Shown: piece by piece, positions 50,559 through 64,000 of the stretch
Layout of the letters: each line of letters opens with the position of its first letter
Numbering within the stretch: position 1 is the first letter of the stretch
Assembly: GCA_964634945.1 (NCBI GenBank)
Contig: CAZWMG010000001.1
Span: 116,825 to 180,824 of the forward strand
Origin: an uncultured Planctomycetia bacterium
GTDB lineage: Bacteria; Omnitrophota; Gorgyraeia; JABMRG01
Direction: 5' to 3'
Length of the DNA: 64,000 nucleotides
Made by a program: the position numbers and the translations under genes
Notes under the pieces: generated by a model
Told to the model about the DNA's origin: nothing
What the model saw: only the letters and a program-made list of their open reading frames with translations
Databases searched by the model: none

Positions 50559-50948
50559 TTAATAGGCCTTATCCGCTATCTTATCGATAAGATCCCTGTC
50601 TCTTTTTTTTATCTTTTCGAACTGCGTTGCTATAAAACATATCTTCGGATAGGAATCTTTTTGTGGTTTCTTATTGCGGATTACCCTGCCGATACATCTT
50701 ATCGTATGCGCGGAAAAAGGAAATATAATTTTAAAATTAACCCGCATACCTGTTGTTAAATCATCATCGTAAGTAAATAACATGCCGCCGGCGCTGAGGT
50801 TACGCACTGTTACTATATCCCACTTACTAAAACATCTCCTGATGAAAACAAAGCTTACAGTCCTAAACCATGACATAAAACTTCTCTCTATCCTCCTATG
50901 TTTTCTCTTCTCCTCCATGACATACCCCCCCTTCGGTTGAATATCCAT
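50559..50948 (-). CDS. PilZ domain c-di-GMP receptor
   Basis: RRIER (RxxxR) and NLSAGG (NxSxxG). 129 aa. Start codon 21 nt downstream of the giant-gene stop. Confidence 0.6.
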   Translation of the reverse strand: MDIQPKGGYVMEEKRKHRRIERSFMSWFRTVSFVFIRRCFSKWDIVTVRNLSAGGMLFTYDDDLTTGMRVNFKIIFPFSAHTIRCIGRVIRNKKPQKDSYPKICFIATQFEKIKKRDRDLIDKIADKAY

Positions 50949-50968: not shown

Positions 50969-53900
50969 TTACGCGTTCTGTGCAACGAGATCATTTATTC
51001 TCTTAATCTCATCATTGTCTATAGGCTTAATCCTTATTGTCCCTGAGCCTGAATTCCCAAACATTGATTCCCAGTTTTCATTCGATATACCAATTTCAAT
51101 ACCTCTCTCGTTCATAAACGCGGCAAGTTGTTTAAATGGCACGCGGAATATTGCCAATACTACCTGTGATGCTGTCACTATATTATTTGCCGTACCAGCA
51201 GATTGTTCAACCTGTACGAATCTTGTCTGATCAGCGGTAATGGATGCAGGCTTATTGTAACGATAGACAATAGTAGCAGTACTTGCTTTCTTGAGGCCGG
51301 TTGTTACTGTTATGCCGTGCTCCTTAAGTTTACTTACTGCCTGGGCACTATTATCGCCATATACTGATATAGATACAGTCTCCTTTACATTATTAGGCAT
51401 CTTATTTATTATAACACCTAATGTCTCAGCAAGCATATCTGTAACTGTATCTGATTCCAGTACAAGAGCCTGTCCTGCTGTTATAGGCAGCTTGTAACCT
51501 TGTGTAGTAACTGTGTTAACAATATTTACCGCTGTTTGCGCTGTATCAAGGCCAAATTCCGAAACGTCAATAATGATGCCGGCAGACGCGCTCTTTGAAT
51601 CCGACACAGGCTCTGAACCGGTCTGTGTATATGATAGGCCCTTTTCAATGAGGCCTGAAGAAGACTGTTTCAATATATCTGGCGATGGCTTCTCTTCCGG
51701 ACTAATCTTAGGAGCATCGGTCGTTGTTGTTTGAGATACCGGTTCCTTACTACCTGATGTAGCCGCTGGCTGCTGTGCGTCTTCTCCCTGCTCTTTGCCT
51801 GCAGCAACATCTAATGCCTCGATATATGCCTGCATTATGAAATTATTCATATTAATTAGCTGAACGGATAAAGGCACATCTCTAACAAACTGCTTTTGTT
51901 TTAGCACCCCTTCTTTTTTGAGCCTTAATACCTCTCTCTGCGCTACAGGCTCAGCTTTTGCTCTTGCCGCTGCCTGCTGTGTTGATTGCGCCTTAGCATC
52001 CTCTAATCCATCTTCTACTGGTAAATCCTTTAATGCTGCTTCATAAGCCTTGCTAACCTTTTCTGCGGCTTTTGATAACTTAATGAACCTATTGAAAGCC
52101 CCATCAACTGCTTTTGGATTACCTTGGCTTGTTTTGTCTAATAATCCTGCGGCTACAAGCTGTGGCACAATAGCCTGTCTTGCTTTAATAGATGCCTTAT
52201 GCTCTTTCATATCGTAGCTTGGTTTTATGTTAAGAATATCTGAGAGCAGAGATGTAATCGCTGTTCTCATTTGCTCAGGACTATACTTATACTCACCTTT
52301 TACATCTTTTATACCATTTGCGATCTTCTCCTGACTATTTTTAAGGGTCTCTACAGCTTCCTTATATTCATCAGAAGCATTACCTGAGACTGCCTGATCT
52401 TCAAACTGCTCTATGGACTGCTCAACAACCTCCTCAATTATCTCATCAAAGGTCTTTCTGGTTCTAATGCCTTCTTCATTCACGTTAGTAAATGTATTTA
52501 ATCTGTATGCGTAATGGCCTTTGGCACCGCCCATCGAGTTAACGGTCTTTTCTCTTAAATAATCTACAGTCTCAAGGAACTCAGGGCTATCGTATAATAT
52601 CTTTGACATAAGCCCATCTACAATTATCTTATTCTTTATTTCATCCGCTAAATCTTTAGACAGAGAAGTAGTGAGCCATGATATCTCATCATTAAAATGT
52701 GAAAGTTCATGCAGCATCTGCTCCAGTATTAGCCAGCCGGATGCAATCTTACCGCTGGTTGCATCATGGTCTATCGCTGCTTTTGCGAATTTTATAAAGT
52801 CTCTTGATAGAGCTATTGTTGGCCGCGCTACTATGTTGCCTTCTTCGCTAAATATTACTACGCGCTCTGCCTGAGCCTTTTCAGCTACTGAACCGCCTGC
52901 TGTCTTCTTAACCATTCTAACCACAACACCATCCGGAGAGCCATTCTTAGCTGCATCCATTAGCACATCAAATAACTGTGTAAGCTCTTCACCGTTGCCT
53001 TTTTTTGATAAGTAATCTTTTATACTATCCATAGAACTGAAGGCAACATTTAATGCGTTAATAAGCTCCTTTATATCTCTTCTTGCTGAATTAGAAGATA
53101 TTGTCAGCTTATCACCTGCCCACTTTACTAGCACAGAATCAGTTGCTGTCTGCGCAAAGTCCCTGTAGACCTTTTGGACCTCTTCATAAAATCCTGATTT
53201 CATATCCAGGTTAGCGAGATGTTTTTTCATAAACTCATCTATATAAGCATCCTGGTTGTTAACCTTGTCCAATTTTATATCATGATACAACTCTGTTAGA
53301 TTAGCCTCAATATCCGCTTCATTAGCGCTTGAACTTCTTGCCTTTAAGAAACTTGTAATCCTAGCGTTTATATCTTTAACATTCAGATTGTGTATACTAA
53401 TATATGCTTTAGCATAAGAGGTTGCCGCTTCATTAAGTTCCTGATTCTTCTTCAGTAGGGGTTCCACAATCAATTCTAGTTGTTTATTGAGCTTTAATAT
53501 TTTAGCCTTTATTACCATGGATCTCTTCTTATCAACATCATCATCTAAATCAAGGGCCTGCAACTCTTCTTCTAGTGACTTCTTCTCTCTCTTAATGCGG
53601 TATATCTTTGACGCAAACAACAAGCGCTCTCTTTTTTTCTCAAGTTTTGTCTTTGCTCTTGCGTACTTAAGCGTTGCATTTGCCATGTCAAATAATTGGT
53701 CATTATCCGCGAAGGCATAGCTATCTTCTGTAAGCATCCTTGTATTATCAATATCCTGGGCAAATTCAATAGATATCGCTGCCTTTATCGCCAGATGAGT
53801 CATAACATCATCTCCCGCTATATCGCTTACCATTATGTCTATCTTCTCATCGGAGGGCTTTGCGACCTTAAACATTATTTGTTTAGCTCTAAATCTGTTC

Positions 53901-56900
53901 TTGAGCATACGTAGAGTCTTTTTAAGCTCCTTCTTCTTAGACTCTTTCTTCTGCTCCGCTATCCTATACTGCGTGATTGCTATGCGTTCCTCTAAATCAT
54001 CTATAGCGACCTTTCTTCTTAAATATTTAAGGAACTTTTCATTGCTCTTTATATCGCCTTTGTTATACGCAATTACCAATGCCTTTGCGAATTCTCGCCT
54101 TGCTGCTAAAGGTTCTTCTGTATTTAACAATGCCTTCTTAAGGTTTGTTTGAGTAAATTCTAAGCCCGGGAACTTTTTCTTCAAAGCATTATACTCTTTA
54201 GCAATCTCATATAAGCCATTAGCGTCAAAATCTTTTAAGGAGTTGCTTGTTCCTATTAGGCCTATTACGGATACTGCAATAGAGGCCTCAGAATCATCCT
54301 TTATGCTGCGGTCGTTATCCTTAAGCATCTTAACTATCTGCTGAAACTCTTCCGGCGGAAGCGCCATCTTAAGAGATATAATTTTTATAGCTACCTCAAG
54401 CACCATCATGCCTCTTACTGTAAGATTGTTATCATTATCCACCATATCGTTATCTCTCATAAATCTTACTAATTGCCCAACTGCAGCATTAGCATCTACG
54501 CTAGCATTAACAGTCCCTTCACCTTTCGCGCTCTCTATATCATCCTGAGCATCTTTTATAGCTGTTTTAAGAGCGATCTCAACCTCATCTACTGTAAGTG
54601 TTCTTTCCTCAACATCTTCATCCTGTGCTTCCAGAGTTCTTGCTGTACGTGCCTGGGCAGCTGTCAGGGTCTGCCTAAACGCTCCGGCAACATCGCCTGA
54701 GAACGATGGCAGTACATAAGGGATAAATCTTCTTGCGGCATTATAAAGCTCTGAATACGTTTCAGCATCCTTAAATGTACTCTCATATGCCTGCCCGGAC
54801 GACTTTCTCAGTATCACACCCTCGTATTCCGATAACAATGGCTTTAGTTCTCTTTCGACAATCCTTATTGATTCTGCTGTCTTAACAGATTCCATATCCT
54901 CCATAAGAGACTTTATAAATTCGACCCCAATGCTTGCGTTAGTATTGAATATCTCAGTTATCAGGGCCTCTGCATCCATAGGCTTATCCAATAGGTCGAG
55001 TGCCGCACTGCGCTGATCAGACTGCTTATCAAGTAGCTTAAGCAGATGCTTCTCAAGGACCTTTCCTTCTGATGTTTGCGCAGTCTCCGGGTTTTCGCTT
55101 CCGTATTTTCTAAGTAGATTTTTAGCTGCCTCAACAAGATAACCTTGGGCAACATCTGTTATAATGTAGGCATTTGATTTTGACATTTGTATAGCGCCTA
55201 CAACCTTAAGCATAAGCTGGGTAGCGGACTGAAAATCATTCTCAATAAACCCATCTATATCATCCTTAGAAGACGCGAACTTATCCAGAAGAGTCTTTGT
55301 ATTCTTAAATTCATCATTCTGCCTGTACTGTTCCGGTGATATCATATTGCTTAACTGAGTAAGGTTGCCCCTTAAGTACTCAAGGCGCTTTTTAAGAGAT
55401 TCTTTATTTACATAGATTACTCTTGTCGCTATATCTGATTCTGAACGTTGCACACGATAGAGCCCCTGTAGTAACAGATCTTCCGCAAGCTCATCAGCAA
55501 CTATATGTATATCAACATCACCGTTATAGTTTAATCCTATCAGGCCACCTTCATTTATGAATACAGCGTGTCCTCTTTGAGCCTGTTTTGCTATCTCATT
55601 TACATCGCCATCCTCATTAGATGCTACTATGTTATTCTCATCTTTCACAATGTATTTAACAATATCTTTATCCAGCCTATTCTGATCAGCGCCTAGGGCT
55701 TCTATCAGATCTTTTATGTTCTCTTCCTTTCGTTTCATGTTTGGATCATTCTTATCAAGTTTTTCTATCACAGAATTCTGCTCATCTATAATGCGTTGCA
55801 GCTTTTTATATATAGCATCTCTTAATCTCTTTCTTAATATGTCATCCCCCTTAATACGTCTTTCAAGCTCTTCCTGAGTACGCTTTCTCATATCTTCGTT
55901 AGCTGTATATATCGCGACACCACCTTGAGTGCGAAGCGACTCTATAGCACCGCTTACAATCTGGGCAATCAATACTTTTTCATCAGCATATTTACAAAGC
56001 ATATGGCTAGGATGTATCCTACCAAAAGTCTTATTATCTATCTCTAACTCTCTATATTCGCTCATTTTTTCATTTGCACTAGCTATCGCGCCTGGAAGCG
56101 CGGAATCATCAACACCGACAAGGTCAATCATCTTATAAACTATATCATTTCCATCACTATCTTTCGTAAATACCGGTATCTCAGAGCGCTCGAAATCAAT
56201 CTCAATTCCTGTTACCGCAGGAAGCATAGCAATTACCTCAAAGAACGTTCCTGAGCCGCCGGCAACATGCGCTCTTGAATTCATACCAAATATCTCGCGC
56301 AAAGTTGACTGCATGTTTGTCGCGTTGTAGGTAAGGCCTGTTACTAAGATCTCTTCATTATCTGTTATCTGCCTGTGTAGTTCTGCTATAGCACTATCGT
56401 CATCTGTATCATTTATGTATTTATTATGCTGTAATGCTATTGCTATAACATAACCCATATCCTGAAACATAGATGAATACTTTGCCCTGCCTTGCCCAAC
56501 AGGTACAATCTTCTTATCAGCTGTTACAAGGTAATCCTGCCCAATACGATGGTTGAGAGCCCTTAACACGCTCTCAACCTCAGACAGTTTAATGCCTTCC
56601 TTGGTAAGCTCGTTCTGAAGTTCTCTTGACGCATAAACAGCATCAAACTCTCTGTCATAGCATACCGCCATACCTGTATTCCTGTAGTTGCTTTTAAATA
56701 ACTCGACATCTCCTTTTAAATCTCTTATATTTAACTTCTTACCTTTCTTTGTCTCTAACACGCCTCCTTTAAATATCTTAAATATTTTCTCGATAGCCTC
56801 TAATTTCTCAGCTGTAACCTCTTTTTCAGCAAGACCACCTTCAATAAATGTATCTCGAACTTTCAGCACGCTATCAAATTCATCAATCCTTAAGATGTTT

Positions 56901-59900
56901 GTCTTAGCAACAGCGTTAAACAACTCATCATTTTCCGCATGCGCTATAGTATTCTGTAAATGGCCTCTTGCTTCACGGCTTATTATCACTACCTGATTAG
57001 GATCATTAAACGCCTCTGTTACCTTCTTATACGCGGCCCTCTTTCCTGCTTTTCCTTCTGCGGATGCATTTTTGAAATCATCTATCAGCTTGTCGCCGCT
57101 TACCATCTTAAGGCCAAAACCATGCAACAAGGTATATTGTGAATGCTCTAAGCCTTTATTTCCATCATCCTTATCAGATAGTGGATTTAAATACTTATCA
57201 ACTGCCTGCGGGCTTTCTAATATCACCATGCCAGCGAGATCGTTGCCTTTTATCAGACTCTCTATACACATCTCTGCTGCAAAAGCATATGTTTTACCGC
57301 CTGCCATTGATAAAGCACCGAATTTTCCTTCAAATAGACTCTTGATAAACTTCTGTTGCTTTGCACGTAATCCGATCTCCTTGTTGCTTAACGCTGACTC
57401 TCTGGCAGCAAGTAAATTAGCGATAGCAAGTCCAAATGCCAGCGCCTGAACATCATCAGTCGCGTGTTCTGTTTCATCTAGTTCAAGACAAGCTTCTTCA
57501 ACCTCATTTCTATTGCCTTTTATATCTGTCTTTGTTATTGTCACGCTTAGGCCTGTTGCGATATCTTTTACGCGATCAACAAAAGCCTTATACGCATCTC
57601 CTGAGCCCTCTGTAAGATTTTCGTATTCAACCTGTTTTTCATTCAGCTCAGACCTTCTCTCATTGATCTGATTCTGCAAAGTTGCAGCTTCTTTCTCTTT
57701 CGCCTTTTGCAGTGTCTTATTGCCATCGTTCCTTGCGCTTATTATCTCTTTTTGCAATTCATCAAAACTGGCAGTTAATTCGCTTATACCCTTTGCCATG
57801 TCTGCCATCTGATCTTTGAACAATACTATCTTCACTCTTGACTCACTATGTTTGCTGTCTGCTACATCAAGCAATTCCATTGCGCCGGAGGCTTCTTTCT
57901 GCACTGCATTCACAATAGCCTCTCCTGCTTTTTCCACAAAATCGTTCTGCTCCGGTGTTAAGGTTCTTGTTAGCTCAAGTTTTCTCAGCATCTGTTTTAT
58001 GAACTTGTTGTTAAATTGCTGATAGAATCTTCTCTTTTCAATTATCGTTTTCTGCTCATCTTCATTATTGGTTAGGCCTGCTACTATATAATCAAAGTCA
58101 TCCTGTCCGGATTCTGTATGTATCATTGCCTCGTAAAGGGCCTGACGTAGTATGTTCTTAACATAGGTATCTAATCTGGCAAAATCGAGGAATGAATCGA
58201 GCGCTGAATTTATATTAATATCATTTGCAGGCGAGGCTGCCTGAACAGCTGCTGCATTATCTATTATAGACTTCAGTATGGCTGATGTAGCTCTTGGATT
58301 ATTTTTGATAACCTGCACATATTCTTCAAATGACTCAAGCTCTAGCTCCTTCTTGGTTTCGCCATTAGCTTTAAAGCTATCTACCAATAGCCTGCTAGCT
58401 CTAGCAACGATCTCTTGTGTCTCTTCTTCAATTTGCGTAACTGTTTCCAGAGCCTGTTTTGAAGCTATCTCTGAGTCAACGTCTTTTAATGTACCGCTTA
58501 ATAACGCTTGCTCCAACATGTCTATACGATCAAGCGCATCAGAATCAACAAGCGATTTAAGATCTTTCTTATTCAATACGATCTCTTCAGTGAGCTGTTT
58601 TAACTCAACCAGAGACGCTAACCCGCCAAATTCAATCTCTGCTGTGTCTAAATTGATCTTTGATATCTTTTCTACCGCAATATCCGCAGCTTGCACTATA
58701 TTTTTGACAGATTCAGCTAAAGATGCCCTGGCTGCGTTATGCTTAATATCTTTTGCTGCCTTTGCTACGTTACCTATGACACCGGCTGCTGAAGTCGCGA
58801 AACGCGCATTGTACTGTGGAGATAGCTCAACATCTTGGCCGCTATCCTCTACAGAGGTAGTCATGTTTAAAGTGGTATTCGCGAATATGCTTCTTAAGCC
58901 TGTGCGCGTATTATCGATATCTACTTTTAGTGTCTTTATGTCTGATGCTGATGCATCGAGCTTCTGCTTCATTTGAGGCAAGGCCTGCTCTAATGTTGAT
59001 AATGCTAGCTCCATCTTTGCAGCAGCGTCAACCAGTTCTATTTGCTGCGCCTTAGTTGCTGTCTGTGAGTCTATAGCTTTTGCCTGAGCCGCAACCTGTT
59101 TAACAGCAACCTTTACCATGCCCACTGTTCTTGCCTGCGTAAGCTCGCCTGCAAAGGTCTCCTGAGCAGCATAATCCTCATATACACCTGCTATGCTTTT
59201 CTTTGATGCCTTATTAATAGATTCACACAGCTTTGTAATATTATTAGCCACCCTGGTAGCGCTATCTGTAAACTGCTTAACTGAAACACCAACTGATTTA
59301 CCATCAAGCACATCTGAAATCTCAACTACAAACTCCTGCAAACCTTCAGGCATCCAACTTAAAAACAATCTTGCCAGTATGACCTCTTTTATTGCCTCTT
59401 CATATATGCCGCCTACTATTCTACTTGAAAAGCCTCCCAATTTTCCCAACATAGTTGCTTCTGGTGCCTCAGCCAAATAAGCAAGCTTACCCTGTATAAA
59501 GCTTGATACAGCGCTAAATGATTTCGCGATAATCCTGCCTATGGTCTGAGGTAACCTAACTAGTGTTAGAAAAGTAATGGCATTAAGCGCGCCGTTAAGA
59601 AAGCTTCCGCCACTTATCGCACTTTTAAGAGTGGAATCTGCTGTGATACTAAACTTCATTGCCCAAGATGAACTTGTCCTTGCTGCAACATCCTTAAATG
59701 GGCCTGATACTCTATTTGATGTAAAGTTCGCTATCCTATGACCCAGTGCAACTAGGGCAGGGGAAAGAGCAGTAAATACCGCTGTAAAGAGTATTCTTTG
59801 CGGATTCAGGTTTTCAGCTAAGGCGTTAAGCACCGAACCTTTACCCATCTGTCGCATCGTTCCATAGATGGTTTTTAAGGCACCTGGCCTCATATTGGCT

Positions 59901-62900
59901 ACAAAATCATCTGTTATGCCAAACGTGTTAAGCCCAGCGCTTGCCATTGAACCTGCTAAATGTAATGATATGCTCATGCCATATGTCAGGTTCCAGACAG
60001 TAGCTATACCATGTTTGTACATATGTTTTGCCCATTTAGTTGAAAGGCTTGCGACTACTTTTGATGCCGCAATCAGCCTCTGAGAGGCTGCAGCCATTAT
60101 GCCTTCACCGGCAGCTGCCTTTGTTACTGCAGAAGCTACCTTTGTTGATGCTGTAGTTATCTTTGAGCCAACATAGGTAAGTGGTTTTGCCGCTATATTG
60201 AGGATTTTTGCAACAGCCTCAATAGACTTAATGCTACCAATTGTACGAGCTATAGAGGTAGTAGCTTTTAGCGCTATGTTTAAAACAGATTTAATGCCTC
60301 TTAATATGATCCCTCCCGCAGCAAGAAGCGCTATATCAATTAACATCTCTGCTCCTGCCAATGTATACTTGTAAGTGCTATCATTTTGTATCTTATACAT
60401 ATCATCTATGCTCGTTACAGTAAAATCTACATCAAAACTTTCTCCGTTAAGCAACGAAGCAACTGAGGCAGCAACATAGCCAATAGCAGAACCAAGATGA
60501 TATACTGCCCAGGAAACAGCAGCGCCCATCCTATATGCGAATAAGGCGCCTTCGCTAGCTGAATCCAATACGGATTGCTGGCCTGTACTAATATCGATAG
60601 ATGTCATCTGATATATAGTTTCGTTATTACCTGTAATATGCTGATACCAGTACTTTGTCTCTATGCTTAGACGTAATATGGATGTATCGGCATCATAACT
60701 GATATTGGCATTATCCTGGCCACTTGTAATAATAAAGCTATCATCAGATGTTCTTGTTGCTGTAACAAGCTCCTGATTGCCCTGCATATCAGTTAAAGTC
60801 TGCGAAGCTGTTATAAGCACGCCATCTCTTATATATGTGTAGCTCTTTAGCATTCCTGACGAGGTTATAACGCCGGTTGACGATGAAACAGAATTTACAG
60901 TTACGTTAATAATATCATTAGGTATAGCAATATCTGCCTGCATAGCAACGTCACCGGTTGTTTCGCCTGATGATGAATATGTTGTAACCGCAATATTCTC
61001 ATCTATGTACATACCAAGAACATCTGCTTGTTCCAGTAACTGCAACGCATTCATACCACTTAATAGTTCTGTGCTGACCTTATCTATTTGATCCTGTCTA
61101 TCTTGTCCTGTTAGCATGCAATCATAAGTAGCATCAACATATACTTCCGCAATTGTCCTTTGAAGAGCAGGGACTATTGTAGCGCTATCTTTCTCGTTGA
61201 GCTCTCCTATTGTCAAACCTAGCGCACTTAAAGTCACGTTAGGTGTGCTTAGATTTATTGATAGTCTATACTCTTTGCCAGTATATGTAAAATCTGTTAT
61301 CTTAATTGTGTGCCCACCACTAAGAACTGATAGTGCCATTAGGCTATCAGGGCTATCTGATATGAAGTTTATAGTTACGCTCAAACCATCCTTATCAGAG
61401 ACAATACCCGCACCTTTTTCTCTTGCTGTCTGGAATTGAATATTATATGATACTTCTGAGTTCTGTATATTATTCAGATACTTGCCAAAACCATCTTGCA
61501 TATTTTGCTTCTTTGCATCGATGCGTGCCTTACAATCCGCTATCTGATCTTTATCATAAAAGTCGCTATCTATCAGGGTCACCATCTGCAATAAGCCTTT
61601 GATCTCATCTGTTAAGGCATCGACTTCCGCTTCTAAATTCTCTAAAAATATTTGATTCATACATGCGGCGATTTTATAGGCTGACCAGAGACCTTTATCC
61701 TCCGCATTAACTTTATTATTAGCTAATGATTCGCTTACAAATTCATAAGGATTGTCAGGATCATCCGTAAACCAGCTACCGATTCCTTTTTGAGATTCAT
61801 ACTCTTCAAAAAGTTTTGTAGAAGCATTAACCAGGCTCTGCATATAAACGCTAAGCTTTGCAAGCTGGGCCGGATTCATATCAGCCAAACCTTGGCCATT
61901 TTCAATATCAATAAGCCCCTGTTCTGTAAGCGTATTAAGAAAAGCGTTTATGTCGCTTTCATCAAGCTTGCCCTGCGCAATACCACCTGCAAGAAGAGCG
62001 AATAAAGCGCCTATTGTTCCTGATATCTTCTGATCTGCGGGATTGCAAAGTATAGGCATCACAACAAAGCTCTGCTCATATTTCTCTGAATCCTTGTCTG
62101 TGGTATTTTTATATTTATCTATAGTCGCTAAAATCTCCACCTTTTCTTGTGCATAAGCGGCTCTCTGGGCATCTGATAGCTCATCTGAATCTGCTCCCAT
62201 AAGCCAGTCCTCCTTAACCATTAAATCAACTTCTATCTGCGAGAGCCTATCCTCAAGTTTTTCTATTAGCACACTATATGGTATGATTTTAGAAGAATCC
62301 ACTGCCTGAACAGCTATCAGATCGTTATCGCCATCTTTACCATACATGATAGTCGTTGAAAGCTCGATAAGCATCGTTATCAGCTTCTTAGCAGATGCTG
62401 ATATATTGATGTCATTGAGATACTCTTGAAGCTTCTGTTTTGACACAAACGTAATGATAGTTTTTGTAGCTTTATTGTAGCCGAGAACAAAATCTGATAG
62501 TGACATGCTTTCATTATGCCACTGCTGTAATGTTATTTTAGCCCCTTGATAAGATATTTCAGAGGTAACATCCAGGTTATCTTTTACAATAAATATCTTA
62601 TTTGTATTTTCATTATATCCGGTGCCTAATCCTATTGAGATATCTCCATCTTTCATCTCTATCTGCGTAACACCCGCTGATAATACGTAACCACCTGATT
62701 TCAAATCTTCGGCAAGTACAAATCTTCCTTGCTTATTAAGCTCTATTGTGAGGCTAGATAAATTATCTGCAAAATTAACCTCTTTTCCGTCAAATATAAC
62801 CTTAAGATTGTCTTTTGAATTCTTATCAAGCTTCGTCGTAAACAATATTCTCTTGCCTGTTGTTAGTGTTACATTAAATTCTCTGCCTGCAATCTTTGCG

Positions 62901-64000
62901 GTAAAGTTCATATTTTCTGCTATATTCAGCTTCTCTAATGGTGTAAAGTTTCCGTTATTATCCAGCACGCCTCGTTCAATATGTTTTTCGCTGTCAGGGC
63001 CGTTTATCTTTGACCTGACTACCAAGCTGTCACCACCCTCTAGTGTTGACTTGACATTAATCATCTCAAGGAATACATGCATTTTTGAATCATCACTAGT
63101 AATAATATTAATCGCTCCATCAATATCCGCGTCCCAGGATACATGTTGCACCATGCCTGAGTCATTCTTAAAAGTAAGTGAGCCAGACCTAAACTCTACG
63201 CCGCCTGCTATGCTCATCTTCATGCCCTGCCCGAATAAGCTAATCTGGCCAGTTGAAATATCTAGCTTAAACTTAAGTATTGTTGCCTCGCCTGACTCCT
63301 TATCTATATACGCACCGATACGCAGGCTTCCATCAGATAGCTTATTTATAACATGGAATTGTGAGTTTATATCTTTTGCGTTAAGATCCTTACTGCCACC
63401 TTCTACCTTGGGAACATATGTAAACTCCGCTTCTTTACCAAACTGGGCGTATATACCGGTATCATCTATTACAAATTTACCTTCTACGCCATTCAATTTT
63501 AGAGTACACTCGGCTATCTTTAAAATATCCGCTTGGTCTATTGTCTGGAACGTACCATTTTCAGTTATTGTTATATGAACTGTTATATCCTGTCCGTTCA
63601 CATCTAATTCTAATGAGTCATCAGAACCAAGGAATTGTGAAATTATCTTCTGGCTTGTAAGTTTTGTATCGTAGCTAATCTGGCCAAGTCCGGTAGGCTT
63701 GAAGCCGTCCTTTGTCCAGCTTACACTTGTGGTTTTAGTGGATTTTGAATTGTCAAAGGTGTATTTATCATATGTTACAACACAGCCTGCGGCGATACTC
63801 ATGTTCATGCCCTGGCCAAACAGAGTTATTACTCCACCGGATAATATATCAAGCTTGAACTTTAACGTTCCGCTAGCTGAGGCGCCTATTAGGGTTACAC
63901 CGTCTTTTGTGCTTGATATTGCCTTGAATTCAGAGCTTATAACTTTCGCATTATCCGGAGTGCCGCCTTTTGTCTCTTTATACCATAGCTTCGCTTCCGG
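50969..64000 (-). CDS. giant multidomain protein, >4,343 aa, N-terminus beyond window. N-terminal beta-rich repeats, hydrophobic Ala/Ser-rich segment, coiled coils, embedded SecA-like DEAD motor, distinct C-terminal domain
   Basis: Track ORF 50969..63808 (4279 aa). I extended the frame by hand to position 64000 without a stop (64 further codons, PEAKLWYKETKGG...), so the 5' end is off-window. Internal motifs are described in findings. Confidence 0.8.
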   Translation of the reverse strand, partial: PEAKLWYKETKGGTPDNAKVISSEFKAISSTKDGVTLIGASASGTLKFKLDILSGGVITLFGQGMNMSIAAGCVVTYDKYTFDNSKSTKTTSVSWTKDGFKPTGLGQISYDTKLTSQKIISQFLGSDDSLELDVNGQDITVHITITENGTFQTIDQADILKIAECTLKLNGVEGKFVIDDTGIYAQFGKEAEFTYVPKVEGGSKDLNAKDINSQFHVINKLSDGSLRIGAYIDKESGEATILKFKLDISTGQISLFGQGMKMSIAGGVEFRSGSLTFKNDSGMVQHVSWDADIDGAINIITSDDSKMHVFLEMINVKSTLEGGDSLVVRSKINGPDSEKHIERGVLDNNGNFTPLEKLNIAENMNFTAKIAGREFNVTLTTGKRILFTTKLDKNSKDNLKVIFDGKEVNFADNLSSLTIELNKQGRFVLAEDLKSGGYVLSAGVTQIEMKDGDISIGLGTGYNENTNKIFIVKDNLDVTSEISYQGAKITLQQWHNESMSLSDFVLGYNKATKTIITFVSKQKLQEYLNDINISASAKKLITMLIELSTTIMYGKDGDNDLIAVQAVDSSKIIPYSVLIEKLEDRLSQIEVDLMVKEDWLMGADSDELSDAQRAAYAQEKVEILATIDKYKNTTDKDSEKYEQSFVVMPILCNPADQKISGTIGALFALLAGGIAQGKLDESDINAFLNTLTEQGLIDIENGQGLADMNPAQLAKLSVYMQSLVNASTKLFEEYESQKGIGSWFTDDPDNPYEFVSESLANNKVNAEDKGLWSAYKIAACMNQIFLENLEAEVDALTDEIKGLLQMVTLIDSDFYDKDQIADCKARIDAKKQNMQDGFGKYLNNIQNSEVSYNIQFQTAREKGAGIVSDKDGLSVTINFISDSPDSLMALSVLSGGHTIKITDFTYTGKEYRLSINLSTPNVTLSALGLTIGELNEKDSATIVPALQRTIAEVYVDATYDCMLTGQDRQDQIDKVSTELLSGMNALQLLEQADVLGMYIDENIAVTTYSSSGETTGDVAMQADIAIPNDIINVTVNSVSSSTGVITSSGMLKSYTYIRDGVLITASQTLTDMQGNQELVTATRTSDDSFIITSGQDNANISYDADTSILRLSIETKYWYQHITGNNETIYQMTSIDISTGQQSVLDSASEGALFAYRMGAAVSWAVYHLGSAIGYVAASVASLLNGESFDVDFTVTSIDDMYKIQNDSTYKYTLAGAEMLIDIALLAAGGIILRGIKSVLNIALKATTSIARTIGSIKSIEAVAKILNIAAKPLTYVGSKITTASTKVASAVTKAAAGEGIMAAASQRLIAASKVVASLSTKWAKHMYKHGIATVWNLTYGMSISLHLAGSMASAGLNTFGITDDFVANMRPGALKTIYGTMRQMGKGSVLNALAENLNPQRILFTAVFTALSPALVALGHRIANFTSNRVSGPFKDVAARTSSSWAMKFSITADSTLKSAISGGSFLNGALNAITFLTLVRLPQTIGRIIAKSFSAVSSFIQGKLAYLAEAPEATMLGKLGGFSSRIVGGIYEEAIKEVILARLFLSWMPEGLQEFVVEISDVLDGKSVGVSVKQFTDSATRVANNITKLCESINKASKKSIAGVYEDYAAQETFAGELTQARTVGMVKVAVKQVAAQAKAIDSQTATKAQQIELVDAAAKMELALSTLEQALPQMKQKLDASASDIKTLKVDIDNTRTGLRSIFANTTLNMTTSVEDSGQDVELSPQYNARFATSAAGVIGNVAKAAKDIKHNAARASLAESVKNIVQAADIAVEKISKINLDTAEIEFGGLASLVELKQLTEEIVLNKKDLKSLVDSDALDRIDMLEQALLSGTLKDVDSEIASKQALETVTQIEEETQEIVARASRLLVDSFKANGETKKELELESFEEYVQVIKNNPRATSAILKSIIDNAAAVQAASPANDININSALDSFLDFARLDTYVKNILRQALYEAMIHTESGQDDFDYIVAGLTNNEDEQKTIIEKRRFYQQFNNKFIKQMLRKLELTRTLTPEQNDFVEKAGEAIVNAVQKEASGAMELLDVADSKHSESRVKIVLFKDQMADMAKGISELTASFDELQKEIISARNDGNKTLQKAKEKEAATLQNQINERRSELNEKQVEYENLTEGSGDAYKAFVDRVKDIATGLSVTITKTDIKGNRNEVEEACLELDETEHATDDVQALAFGLAIANLLAARESALSNKEIGLRAKQQKFIKSLFEGKFGALSMAGGKTYAFAAEMCIESLIKGNDLAGMVILESPQAVDKYLNPLSDKDDGNKGLEHSQYTLLHGFGLKMVSGDKLIDDFKNASAEGKAGKRAAYKKVTEAFNDPNQVVIISREARGHLQNTIAHAENDELFNAVAKTNILRIDEFDSVLKVRDTFIEGGLAEKEVTAEKLEAIEKIFKIFKGGVLETKKGKKLNIRDLKGDVELFKSNYRNTGMAVCYDREFDAVYASRELQNELTKEGIKLSEVESVLRALNHRIGQDYLVTADKKIVPVGQGRAKYSSMFQDMGYVIAIALQHNKYINDTDDDSAIAELHRQITDNEEILVTGLTYNATNMQSTLREIFGMNSRAHVAGGSGTFFEVIAMLPAVTGIEIDFERSEIPVFTKDSDGNDIVYKMIDLVGVDDSALPGAIASANEKMSEYRELEIDNKTFGRIHPSHMLCKYADEKVLIAQIVSGAIESLRTQGGVAIYTANEDMRKRTQEELERRIKGDDILRKRLRDAIYKKLQRIIDEQNSVIEKLDKNDPNMKRKEENIKDLIEALGADQNRLDKDIVKYIVKDENNIVASNEDGDVNEIAKQAQRGHAVFINEGGLIGLNYNGDVDIHIVADELAEDLLLQGLYRVQRSESDIATRVIYVNKESLKKRLEYLRGNLTQLSNMISPEQYRQNDEFKNTKTLLDKFASSKDDIDGFIENDFQSATQLMLKVVGAIQMSKSNAYIITDVAQGYLVEAAKNLLRKYGSENPETAQTSEGKVLEKHLLKLLDKQSDQRSAALDLLDKPMDAEALITEIFNTNASIGVEFIKSLMEDMESVKTAESIRIVERELKPLLSEYEGVILRKSSGQAYESTFKDAETYSELYNAARRFIPYVLPSFSGDVAGAFRQTLTAAQARTARTLEAQDEDVEERTLTVDEVEIALKTAIKDAQDDIESAKGEGTVNASVDANAAVGQLVRFMRDNDMVDNDNNLTVRGMMVLEVAIKIISLKMALPPEEFQQIVKMLKDNDRSIKDDSEASIAVSVIGLIGTSNSLKDFDANGLYEIAKEYNALKKKFPGLEFTQTNLKKALLNTEEPLAARREFAKALVIAYNKGDIKSNEKFLKYLRRKVAIDDLEERIAITQYRIAEQKKESKKKELKKTLRMLKNRFRAKQIMFKVAKPSDEKIDIMVSDIAGDDVMTHLAIKAAISIEFAQDIDNTRMLTEDSYAFADNDQLFDMANATLKYARAKTKLEKKRERLLFASKIYRIKREKKSLEEELQALDLDDDVDKKRSMVIKAKILKLNKQLELIVEPLLKKNQELNEAATSYAKAYISIHNLNVKDINARITSFLKARSSSANEADIEANLTELYHDIKLDKVNNQDAYIDEFMKKHLANLDMKSGFYEEVQKVYRDFAQTATDSVLVKWAGDKLTISSNSARRDIKELINALNVAFSSMDSIKDYLSKKGNGEELTQLFDVLMDAAKNGSPDGVVVRMVKKTAGGSVAEKAQAERVVIFSEEGNIVARPTIALSRDFIKFAKAAIDHDATSGKIASGWLILEQMLHELSHFNDEISWLTTSLSKDLADEIKNKIIVDGLMSKILYDSPEFLETVDYLREKTVNSMGGAKGHYAYRLNTFTNVNEEGIRTRKTFDEIIEEVVEQSIEQFEDQAVSGNASDEYKEAVETLKNSQEKIANGIKDVKGEYKYSPEQMRTAITSLLSDILNIKPSYDMKEHKASIKARQAIVPQLVAAGLLDKTSQGNPKAVDGAFNRFIKLSKAAEKVSKAYEAALKDLPVEDGLEDAKAQSTQQAAARAKAEPVAQREVLRLKKEGVLKQKQFVRDVPLSVQLINMNNFIMQAYIEALDVAAGKEQGEDAQQPAATSGSKEPVSQTTTTDAPKISPEEKPSPDILKQSSSGLIEKGLSYTQTGSEPVSDSKSASAGIIIDVSEFGLDTAQTAVNIVNTVTTQGYKLPITAGQALVLESDTVTDMLAETLGVIINKMPNNVKETVSISVYGDNSAQAVSKLKEHGITVTTGLKKASTATIVYRYNKPASITADQTRFVQVEQSAGTANNIVTASQVVLAIFRVPFKQLAAFMNERGIEIGISNENWESMFGNSGSGTIRIKPIDNDEIKRINDLVAQNA

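Follow-up and report, generated by a model that had tools for sequence, protein, structure and literature searches.

Introduction

Giant proteins of the Omnitrophota contain divergent SecA DEAD and preprotein-binding domains that stand downstream of membrane anchors and come without the scaffold and wing domains of SecA, and such SecA-like domains also occur in some giant proteins of Actinobacteriota (West-Roberts et al. 2023, bioRxiv 10.1101/2023.11.21.568195). The same study places these domains in a long-branched clade of the SecA_DEAD tree, apart from housekeeping SecA, finds them coexisting with a normal SecA, SecYEG, SecB and SecD, and reports Omnitrophota as predatory or host-dependent; it also carries the proposal that the domains may export the protein of which they are a part (bioRxiv 10.1101/2023.11.21.568195). 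A 20-protein architecture cluster with PF07517 is known among Omnitrophota proteins of at least 10 thousand amino acids (kaa) (2026 preprint, bioRxiv 10.64898/2026.06.07.730766). Here we describe a SecA-like motor in a stretch of 64,000 nucleotides of uncultured bacterial DNA (hereafter the window; positions 116,825 to 180,824 of contig CAZWMG010000001.1), where it lies in the middle of a giant minus-strand open reading frame (ORF). A preliminary description, made from the letters of this DNA, had recognized the motor and knew of no described system like it; the arrangement in Omnitrophota giant proteins, together with the self-export proposal, had already been published (bioRxiv 10.1101/2023.11.21.568195).

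We read residues ~2107-2834 of the giant ORF as a genuine, selectively maintained SecA-type ATPase module in a presumably membrane-associated Omnitrophota giant protein, belonging to the class already described, and put the probability of this reading at roughly three in four. Its identity as a SecA-type motor, taken separately, is highly probable; a role of the motor in export is tentative. All residue numbers are relative to the listed ATG at 63808 of the minus-strand ORF and, since this ATG is not the real start of the gene (see below), they are arbitrary as counts from the N-terminus.

Results

Similarity to SecA in profiles and in a structure model

Used alone, the window sequence gave nothing meaningful in searches of Pfam, NCBIfam, PHROGs and PADLOC or in a phmmer search of the PDB. 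A HMMER check against the Pfam SecA families, which the preliminary description had proposed, likewise found no match in the window protein, with SecA_DEAD (PF07517) and SecA_PP_bind (PF01043) absent at E-values up to 10, and a pairwise BLASTP comparison with E. coli SecA gave no significant match. The best member of the protein's family reached E 0.11 against SecA_DEAD. To be statistically solid, the similarity to SecA needs a family profile or a model of the structure.

For the profile comparison we used an alignment of 14 family sequences (alignment A1) and a SecA reference profile of 13 SecA and SecA2 sequences from E. coli and from plasmid-database records; a homolog search started from E. 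coli SecA returned solely enterobacterial SecA at least 89% identical, which was unfit for a profile. In hhalign the family profile matched the SecA/SecA2 profile with a probability of 94.8% and E 5.3e-8 over 315 colinear columns, the reversed-sequence control giving 0.037. The alignment pairs query residues 21-437 with E. coli SecA 65-408 and runs through Walker A, the TYGTNNE block, Walker B with IISG, the core of the preprotein cross-linking domain, PPXD (in the query, DYLVTADKKIVPVGQ-GRAKYSSMFQD) and AGGSGT/AGMTGT. When the insert alone (region residues 228-395) was compared, it aligned to E. coli SecA 260-351, within PPXD, at P 5.5e-4 against 0.59 for its reversed control, and the piece containing motif VI aligned to E. 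coli SecA 570-587 at P 1e-3.

A structural comparison, the second check proposed for this region, came out for SecA. AlphaFold run without an alignment gave an unusable model, with a predicted local distance difference test score (pLDDT) of 39; with alignment A1 the model reached pLDDT 75.9 and a predicted template modelling score (pTM) of 0.61. In a Foldseek search of the PDB with this model the top 17 matches were all SecA or SecA2, at E 2.5e-12 to 5.7e-6, and the first other matches (MDA5, SRCAP, eIF4A and others) followed from E 8.7e-6. The best target-normalised TM-score among the SecA matches was 0.46, to SecA-N68 (the first nucleotide-binding domain NBD1, PPXD and the second, NBD2), some short DEAD-box targets scoring higher.

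The module could instead be a generic superfamily 2 (SF2) or DEAD-box nucleic-acid helicase, or an RNA-dependent ATPase, which acts on RNA or DNA and carries an unrelated insert. Three comparisons lean this way: the best PDB sequence matches of the family profile are DEAD-box proteins (DDX18 at E 0.004, over the Q motif and Walker A, versus E 0.2-0.55 for SecA), Pfam DEAD weakly matches 4 of the 14 family members versus one of 14 for SecA_DEAD, and the RecA1 lobe alone scores nearer to a reference profile of five E. coli DEAD-box helicases (E 2.4e-7) than to SecA (E 1e-3). However, SecA itself is a DEAD-box relative and matches the same DEAD-box profile at E 2.9e-9, so the likeness of RecA1 does not discriminate between the two. 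Over the whole module the SecA profile scores 75.7 and the DEAD-box profile 54; the insert lies exactly at the PPXD site and aligns to PPXD only, with no counterpart in the DEAD-box profile (P 0.23); the stretch from motif III to the next strand, as well as motif VI, aligns better to SecA; and Foldseek favours SecA by about six orders of magnitude. The signal specific to SecA lies in the insert, in motif VI and the motif III region, and in the architecture as a whole. The domain order NBD1-PPXD-NBD2, which the preliminary description had read here in place of a plain SF2 helicase, is borne out by the alignment of the insert.

Motifs, conservation and missing domains

The motor module is present once in the giant protein, and its features are collected in Table 1. 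The preliminary description had quoted seven peptides from residues ~2137-2803 of the giant ORF, and all seven are found in the translated minus-strand ORF, each within ~35 nucleotides of the place it had been given. Its pairings of these peptides with SecA were for the most part reproduced by hhalign, namely those of Walker A, of ISREARGHLQN with TYGTNNE, of Walker B and IEGG with IISG, and of MQSTLREIF...AGGSGT with FQNYFRLY...AGMTGT. The strand after motif III was reproduced in part, in the last columns of the alignment, and motif VI was recovered separately. For motif V the predicted strand order agrees with the pairing, which the profile alignment did not recover, so that the pairing with SecA rests on the strand order of the model.

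Within the family, the N-terminal part of the RecA1 lobe, which hhalign pairs with E. coli SecA 65-217, has an invariant Q-motif Gln and nearly invariant Gly, Lys and Thr in Walker A and Asp and Glu in Walker B. Walker B is followed by an IEGG hinge into the insert, corresponding to IISG of E. coli SecA, and the first Gly of motif III is again nearly invariant. Read over the 14 sequences, the N-terminal half of the family core consists of the invariant Gln, xGxGKT, LES/VEK..AV.K, VVIS..ARGHL.N and RIDE[FIV][DH] followed by SYI.GG. The middle is a variable insert with I.PVG.G.AK..S.FQD, succeeded by T.MQS.LREIF....AGGSGT, and in the C-terminal half a variable linker leads to II.TNE.GL.G.DY and LL.Q..GR..R.

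In the model, the RecA2 lobe has the beta/alpha order of SecA NBD2, and the lobe is kept in 10 homologs. It includes a three-helix hairpin that evolves fast (25-39% identity to orthologs, compared with 60-70% for the remainder of the motor) and that is short or absent in distant relatives, as judged from the gaps in alignment A1. The family consensus of motif V is TNExGLxGxDY and the window has INEGGLIGLNY, with Leu family-wide at the position of E. coli SecA R509 and Asn for Asp in this clade. Motif VI differs from QxxGRxxR solely by Tyr in place of Gly, and its Gln and both Arg are invariant in the four closest sequences.

Other parts of SecA were not detected. The window protein has no match to Pfam SecA_SW or to the C-terminal SecA domains, and profiles of residues 2800-3300, or of the upstream coiled coil, compared by sequence with the scaffold, two-helix finger and wing, did no better than reversed SecA. 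With no signal for scaffold, wing or C-terminal domains, the module matches the N68 part of SecA only. Isolated SecA N68 is a deregulated ATPase that does not translocate by itself, and R509, whose equivalent here is Leu, is needed for SecA function, as the R509K mutant indicates. The module is not canonical SecA: it has no detected scaffold or wing, no motif V Arg and no match at Pfam thresholds. To have called it a complete motor was too strong, and it plausibly works like the motor core of SecA. We also considered whether it could be the only SecA of the cell and rejected this on analysis, since it is without scaffold and wing and the literature reports a normal SecA in genomes of this kind; among the ORFs of the window none is a housekeeping SecA by size and domains.

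Table 1. Positions of the motor module, its motifs and other features of the giant gene in the window
Feature	Position	Strand	Residues	Remarks
SecA-like motor module	55307-57490	minus	2107-2834	
Peptide GALSMAGGKTYAFAAEM	57269-57319	minus	2164-2180	
Peptide VVIISREARGHLQNT	56948-56992	minus		from giant-ORF translation
Peptide ILRIDEFDSVLKVRDTFIEGG	56834-56896	minus		from giant-ORF translation
Peptide LTYNATNMQSTLREIFGMNSRAHVAGGSGT	56246-56335	minus		from giant-ORF translation
Peptide EVIAMLPAVTGIEIDFERSEIPV	56171-56239	minus		from giant-ORF translation
Peptide DVDIHIVADELAEDLLLQGLYRVQRSESDI	55430-55519	minus		from giant-ORF translation
RecA1 lobe (NBD1), N-terminal part	56834-57373	minus		Q-motif Gln2151, Walker A, motif Ia/Ib equivalents, Walker B
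Walker A (motif I), MAGGKT	57290-57307	minus	Lys2172, Thr2173	E. coli SecA GEGKT 105-109
Walker B (motif II), DEFD	56873-56884	minus	Asp2309, Glu2310	E. coli SecA DEVD 209-212
PPXD-like insert	56312-56845	minus	~2322-2499	between motifs II and III; contains DYLVTADKKIVPVGQGRAKYSSMFQD
Motif III, AGGSGT	56246-56263	minus	2516-2521	E. coli SecA AGMTGT 388-393
RecA2 lobe (NBD2)	55319-56194	minus	~2539-2830	
Three-helix hairpin in NBD2	55667-55897	minus	~2638-2714	~77 residues; model helices 539-615
Motif V-like segment GHAVFINEGGLIGLNY	55526-55573	minus		placed by predicted strand order
Motif VI, QGLYRVQR	55445-55468	minus	Gln2781, Arg2785, Arg2788	E. coli SecA Q570/R574/R577
Weakly hydrophobic A/G/S/T-rich region	59558-60529	minus	~1094-1417	4-5 candidate membrane helices (hydropathy scans)
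Second conserved block	52319-53131	minus		HExxH (LHELSH) at 52697-52711; 57-60% identity to orthologs
C-terminal domain, ~195 aa	50972-51556	minus		preceded by Ser/Thr/Pro/Gln/Ala-rich low-complexity linker
Giant ORF	50969-64000	minus		4279 codons from first ATG (listed 50969-63808); open to window edge
Small PilZ-domain gene (c-di-GMP-binding type)	50559-50948	minus		Pfam PilZ E 4.7e-9; directly downstream of giant gene

Alternative explanations and a possible mechanism

Several points weigh against the SecA-type reading. No Pfam SecA model reaches E 0.1 or better on the window sequence, the match of the insert alone, by sequence, is of modest significance (P ~5e-4), and the RecA1 lobe by itself stands nearer to the DEAD-box helicases. 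Motif V has no Arg at the position of R509, and as there is no equivalent of the scaffold or two-helix finger, a SecA-style engagement of SecY is doubtful. Membership in the published class rests on phylum, architecture and position and not on phylogeny. The cytoplasmic placement of the motor is presumed and the membrane helices are candidates from hydropathy, and co-translational action on the N-terminal part of its own protein is impossible for a motor that is C-terminal to its anchor.

The SecA-type module is likely a polypeptide-handling ATPase, and it is a reasonable hypothesis that it exports the giant protein in which it sits. The module would bind and hydrolyse ATP and would grip unfolded polypeptide in a cleft formed by the PPXD-like insert with the second lobe; the PPXD-like domain could close over the polypeptide as in SecA. 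An ATPase must face the cytoplasm. Presumably cytoplasmic and tethered by the upstream helices, the motor would have RecA lobes that open and close with the ATP cycle. Export could proceed through SecYEG or another conduit; in the absence of a two-helix finger and scaffold, the motor could couple to SecY only in a way unlike that of SecA.

An active SecA-derived motor might also serve other ends than self-export, as an unfoldase or chaperone, in the delivery of other proteins such as effectors against prey or a host, or as a regulator of the HExxH module downstream, and we regard this as rather unlikely. The position of the motor, C-terminal to the presumed anchor and ~900 residues upstream of the conserved HExxH block, is consistent with such a role, as are the N-terminal YD-type repeats of orthologs, which are typical of toxin-delivery proteins, the giant genes that adjoin homologs, and the predatory or host-dependent habit reported for Omnitrophota. 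Against it, the HExxH block has no detectable homology to proteases and, by domain annotation, no secretion-system genes lie beside the giant gene within the window.

A more speculative version of the export hypothesis, which we consider improbable, is that this Pfam-invisible clade is a SecA-derived motor that, with the loss of scaffold, two-helix finger and motif V Arg, has become independent of SecYEG and forms a self-contained auto-translocation or effector-injection device tethered by its own membrane helices. If true, such a device would move its own N-terminal adhesin or YD-repeat part, or HExxH-processed cargo, through the membrane of a predatory or symbiotic nanobacterium.

The preliminary description had also noted several substituted catalytic residues and allowed for a degenerate protein, which amounts to a catalytically dead, SecA-derived scaffold with a purely structural or binding function in the giant protein. 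The non-canonical motif V, with no Arg at the R509 position and Asn for Asp, the Tyr for Gly in motif VI and the missing regulatory C-domain of SecA would fit such a scaffold. The substitutions it had named mostly do not stand: DEFD conforms to the ordinary DExD box, and in QGLYRVQR the motif VI Gln and both of its Arg are retained. In close relatives Walker A Lys and Thr, Walker B Asp and Glu, motif III, the Q-motif Gln and both motif VI Arg are invariant, and the same motifs are kept by distant family members. The motor is 58-71% identical to two orthologs per 100-residue block, compared with 34-38% for the whole protein, and is the best-conserved segment of an otherwise fast-evolving giant protein, which is typical of a constrained enzyme. 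With the nucleotide-binding motifs intact and the motor best conserved, a dead scaffold is decidedly unlikely, and from its sequence the motor is probably an active ATPase.

That the module is a generic helicase with an unrelated insert is very unlikely, given the whole-module scores, the placement of the insert and the structural matches set out above.

The giant protein and its locus

The giant ORF is at least 4343 codons long up to the end of the window by a check of the reading frame. The minus-strand frame is free of stops through 63809-64000, so the ATG at 63808 is not the true start; because the frame is open at the window edge, the gene extends past the window, 4279 aa is a minimum and the N-terminus lies outside. 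The protein is at least 4.3 kaa and probably ~7 kaa.

The weakly hydrophobic region lies ~700-1000 residues upstream of the motor, with long helical segments between the two, and about half of the full-length homologs (P0001-P0004 and P0012) have a hydrophobic cluster of this kind ahead of the motor. Downstream of the motor, the block with HExxH is the second most conserved of the protein, and its HExxH is invariant in four sequences. It has no Pfam or PDB sequence match; from its motif it is possibly a zinc metalloprotease-like module. The domain of ~195 aa at the extreme C-terminus is found there in orthologs P0001-P0003 too and matches no family.

Ortholog P0002 has an N-terminal extension of ~2500 residues, whose residues 1-700 (locus L005, 199 onward) contain YD/RHS-like repeats (YDDNGNLI, YDSRGNVI and others) with a group of hydrophobic helices after them, and P0001 is annotated as 'YD repeat-containing protein' (JGI). 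The window gene may encode a similar YD-repeat N-terminal part beyond position 64000. Upstream of the listed ATG, the peptide GTLKFKLDILSGGVITLFGQGMNMSIAAG resembles ILKFKLDISTGQISLFGQGMKMSIAGG ~195 residues further on, which hints at repeated modules in the N-terminal part of the giant protein; in a self-BLAST, however, no internal repeat of that region was significant.

The window is ordinary bacterial chromosomal DNA of ~40% G+C. Downstream of the giant gene it encodes the PilZ protein, Lgt, GroES/GroEL, a tetratricopeptide repeat (TPR)-peptidase, an IMPDH-family enzyme, DnaE, HisRS, AspRS, PPDK and GlyQS; neither SecY2 nor Asp genes occur near the motor gene within the window. The PilZ gene has the same position in the ortholog locus (L005, 20394-20672), which suggests that the giant gene and PilZ are a conserved operon-like pair. 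GroEL, DnaE and PPDK of the window share 90% identity clusters with proteins of Candidatus Orphnella occulta, a member of Candidatus Omnitrophota in the NCBI taxonomy, and by these sequences the host genome is close to that organism, within the Omnitrophota.

Relatives of the giant protein

Searched exhaustively with HMMER, 1.84 billion cluster representatives yielded 16 relatives, of which five have E < 1e-30. Most of the 16 are giant themselves, up to 7348 aa, and the four with a named source are from metagenome-assembled genomes of Omnitrophota or Chlamydiota. A scan of GTDB genomes with a family alignment (A2) added one Omnitrophota single-cell genome. No relative was found by the genome-collection scan with the single protein as query, by the metagenome scan, or by the word-indexed protein search with either the region or the family alignment as query. 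The word filter of that search, with its 8000 candidates, apparently saturates on these lysine- and glutamate-rich giant proteins; the exhaustive HMMER search reached relatives of up to 59% identity.

The closest relatives in the motor region are P0001 (59% identity) and P0002 (56%). P0002 has at least 6691 aa and begins at the edge of its contig, and its locus has the same order of genes as the window (giant gene, PilZ, a hypothetical gene, Lgt, GroES, GroEL, TPR-peptidase, IMPDH and DnaE), by which synteny it is an ortholog. Further very long genes (more than 3475 aa and more than 2533 aa) are found next to distant homologs (L024, 34077-42047; L025, 22298-29896), and a Pfam scan of the neighbourhoods of three distant homologs gave no matches.

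Significance

The feature is real and is a divergent, annotation-invisible example of the known, functionally uncharacterised SecA-like domains of giant proteins; it leaves what is known of this kind of system unchanged. SecA-like motors are not confined to Omnitrophota proteins of more than 10-30 kaa and occur also in this conserved, syntenic family of 4-7 kaa, which is annotated 'no domains'. Because the family is invisible to Pfam, Pfam-based surveys undercount such motors. This compact, well-conserved module of ~730 residues, in which the catalytic residues can be named (K2172, D2309/E2310, R2785 and R2788), offers a practical construct for the published question of whether fused SecA-like motors hydrolyse ATP and export their own giant protein.

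Comparison with known systems

DEAD-box RNA helicases such as E. coli RhlE and human DDX18 share with the module the Q motif, GxGKT-x-AF and the DExD box. They differ from it in motifs Ia, Ib and V, and the module has an insert of ~180 residues between motifs II and III.

SecA2 of the accessory Sec systems, which exports very large adhesins or specific substrates, resembles the window motor in being a specialised SecA paralog that is tied to very large surface proteins and exists beside a housekeeping SecA, and the SecA2 structures 6t4h and 4uaq are among the top Foldseek matches of the motor. SecA2 is, however, a separate protein that retains its scaffold and acts together with SecY or SecY2, whereas the window motor is fused in cis. 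Large plasmids also carry stand-alone, unannotated SecA-like paralogs, 26-34% identical to E. coli SecA over its motor part; examples are in Photobacterium damselae p1_508 (L016, 1471-3792, 773 aa) and Miltoncostaea oceani (L014, 109-2304, 731 aa).

Canonical SecA differs from the module by a sequence identity of only ~12-16%, by the Arg of motif V, which is replaced here, and by the extra helical hairpin that the module has in NBD2. Its scaffold, two-helix finger, wing and zinc-binding C-terminus have no detected counterpart in the module, which is fused inside a giant protein. The likeness to the N68 part of canonical SecA (PDB 5k9t and 3bxz) extends to the domain order, the insertion point of PPXD, Walker A and B, motifs III and VI, and the best structural matches.

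Pfam models detected the giant-protein domains of West-Roberts et al., which belong to proteins of more than 30 kaa, or at least 10 kaa in the published cluster, whereas the window module and its orthologs are Pfam-invisible and belong to a host protein of at least 4.3 kaa and an ortholog of at least 6.7 kaa. The weakly hydrophobic candidate helices upstream of the motor may correspond to the transmembrane region that precedes the domains in that class. In the other respects compared the module is like the class: it occurs in Omnitrophota and in a giant protein, it is strongly divergent, and it consists of a DEAD motor with PPXD and without scaffold or wing.

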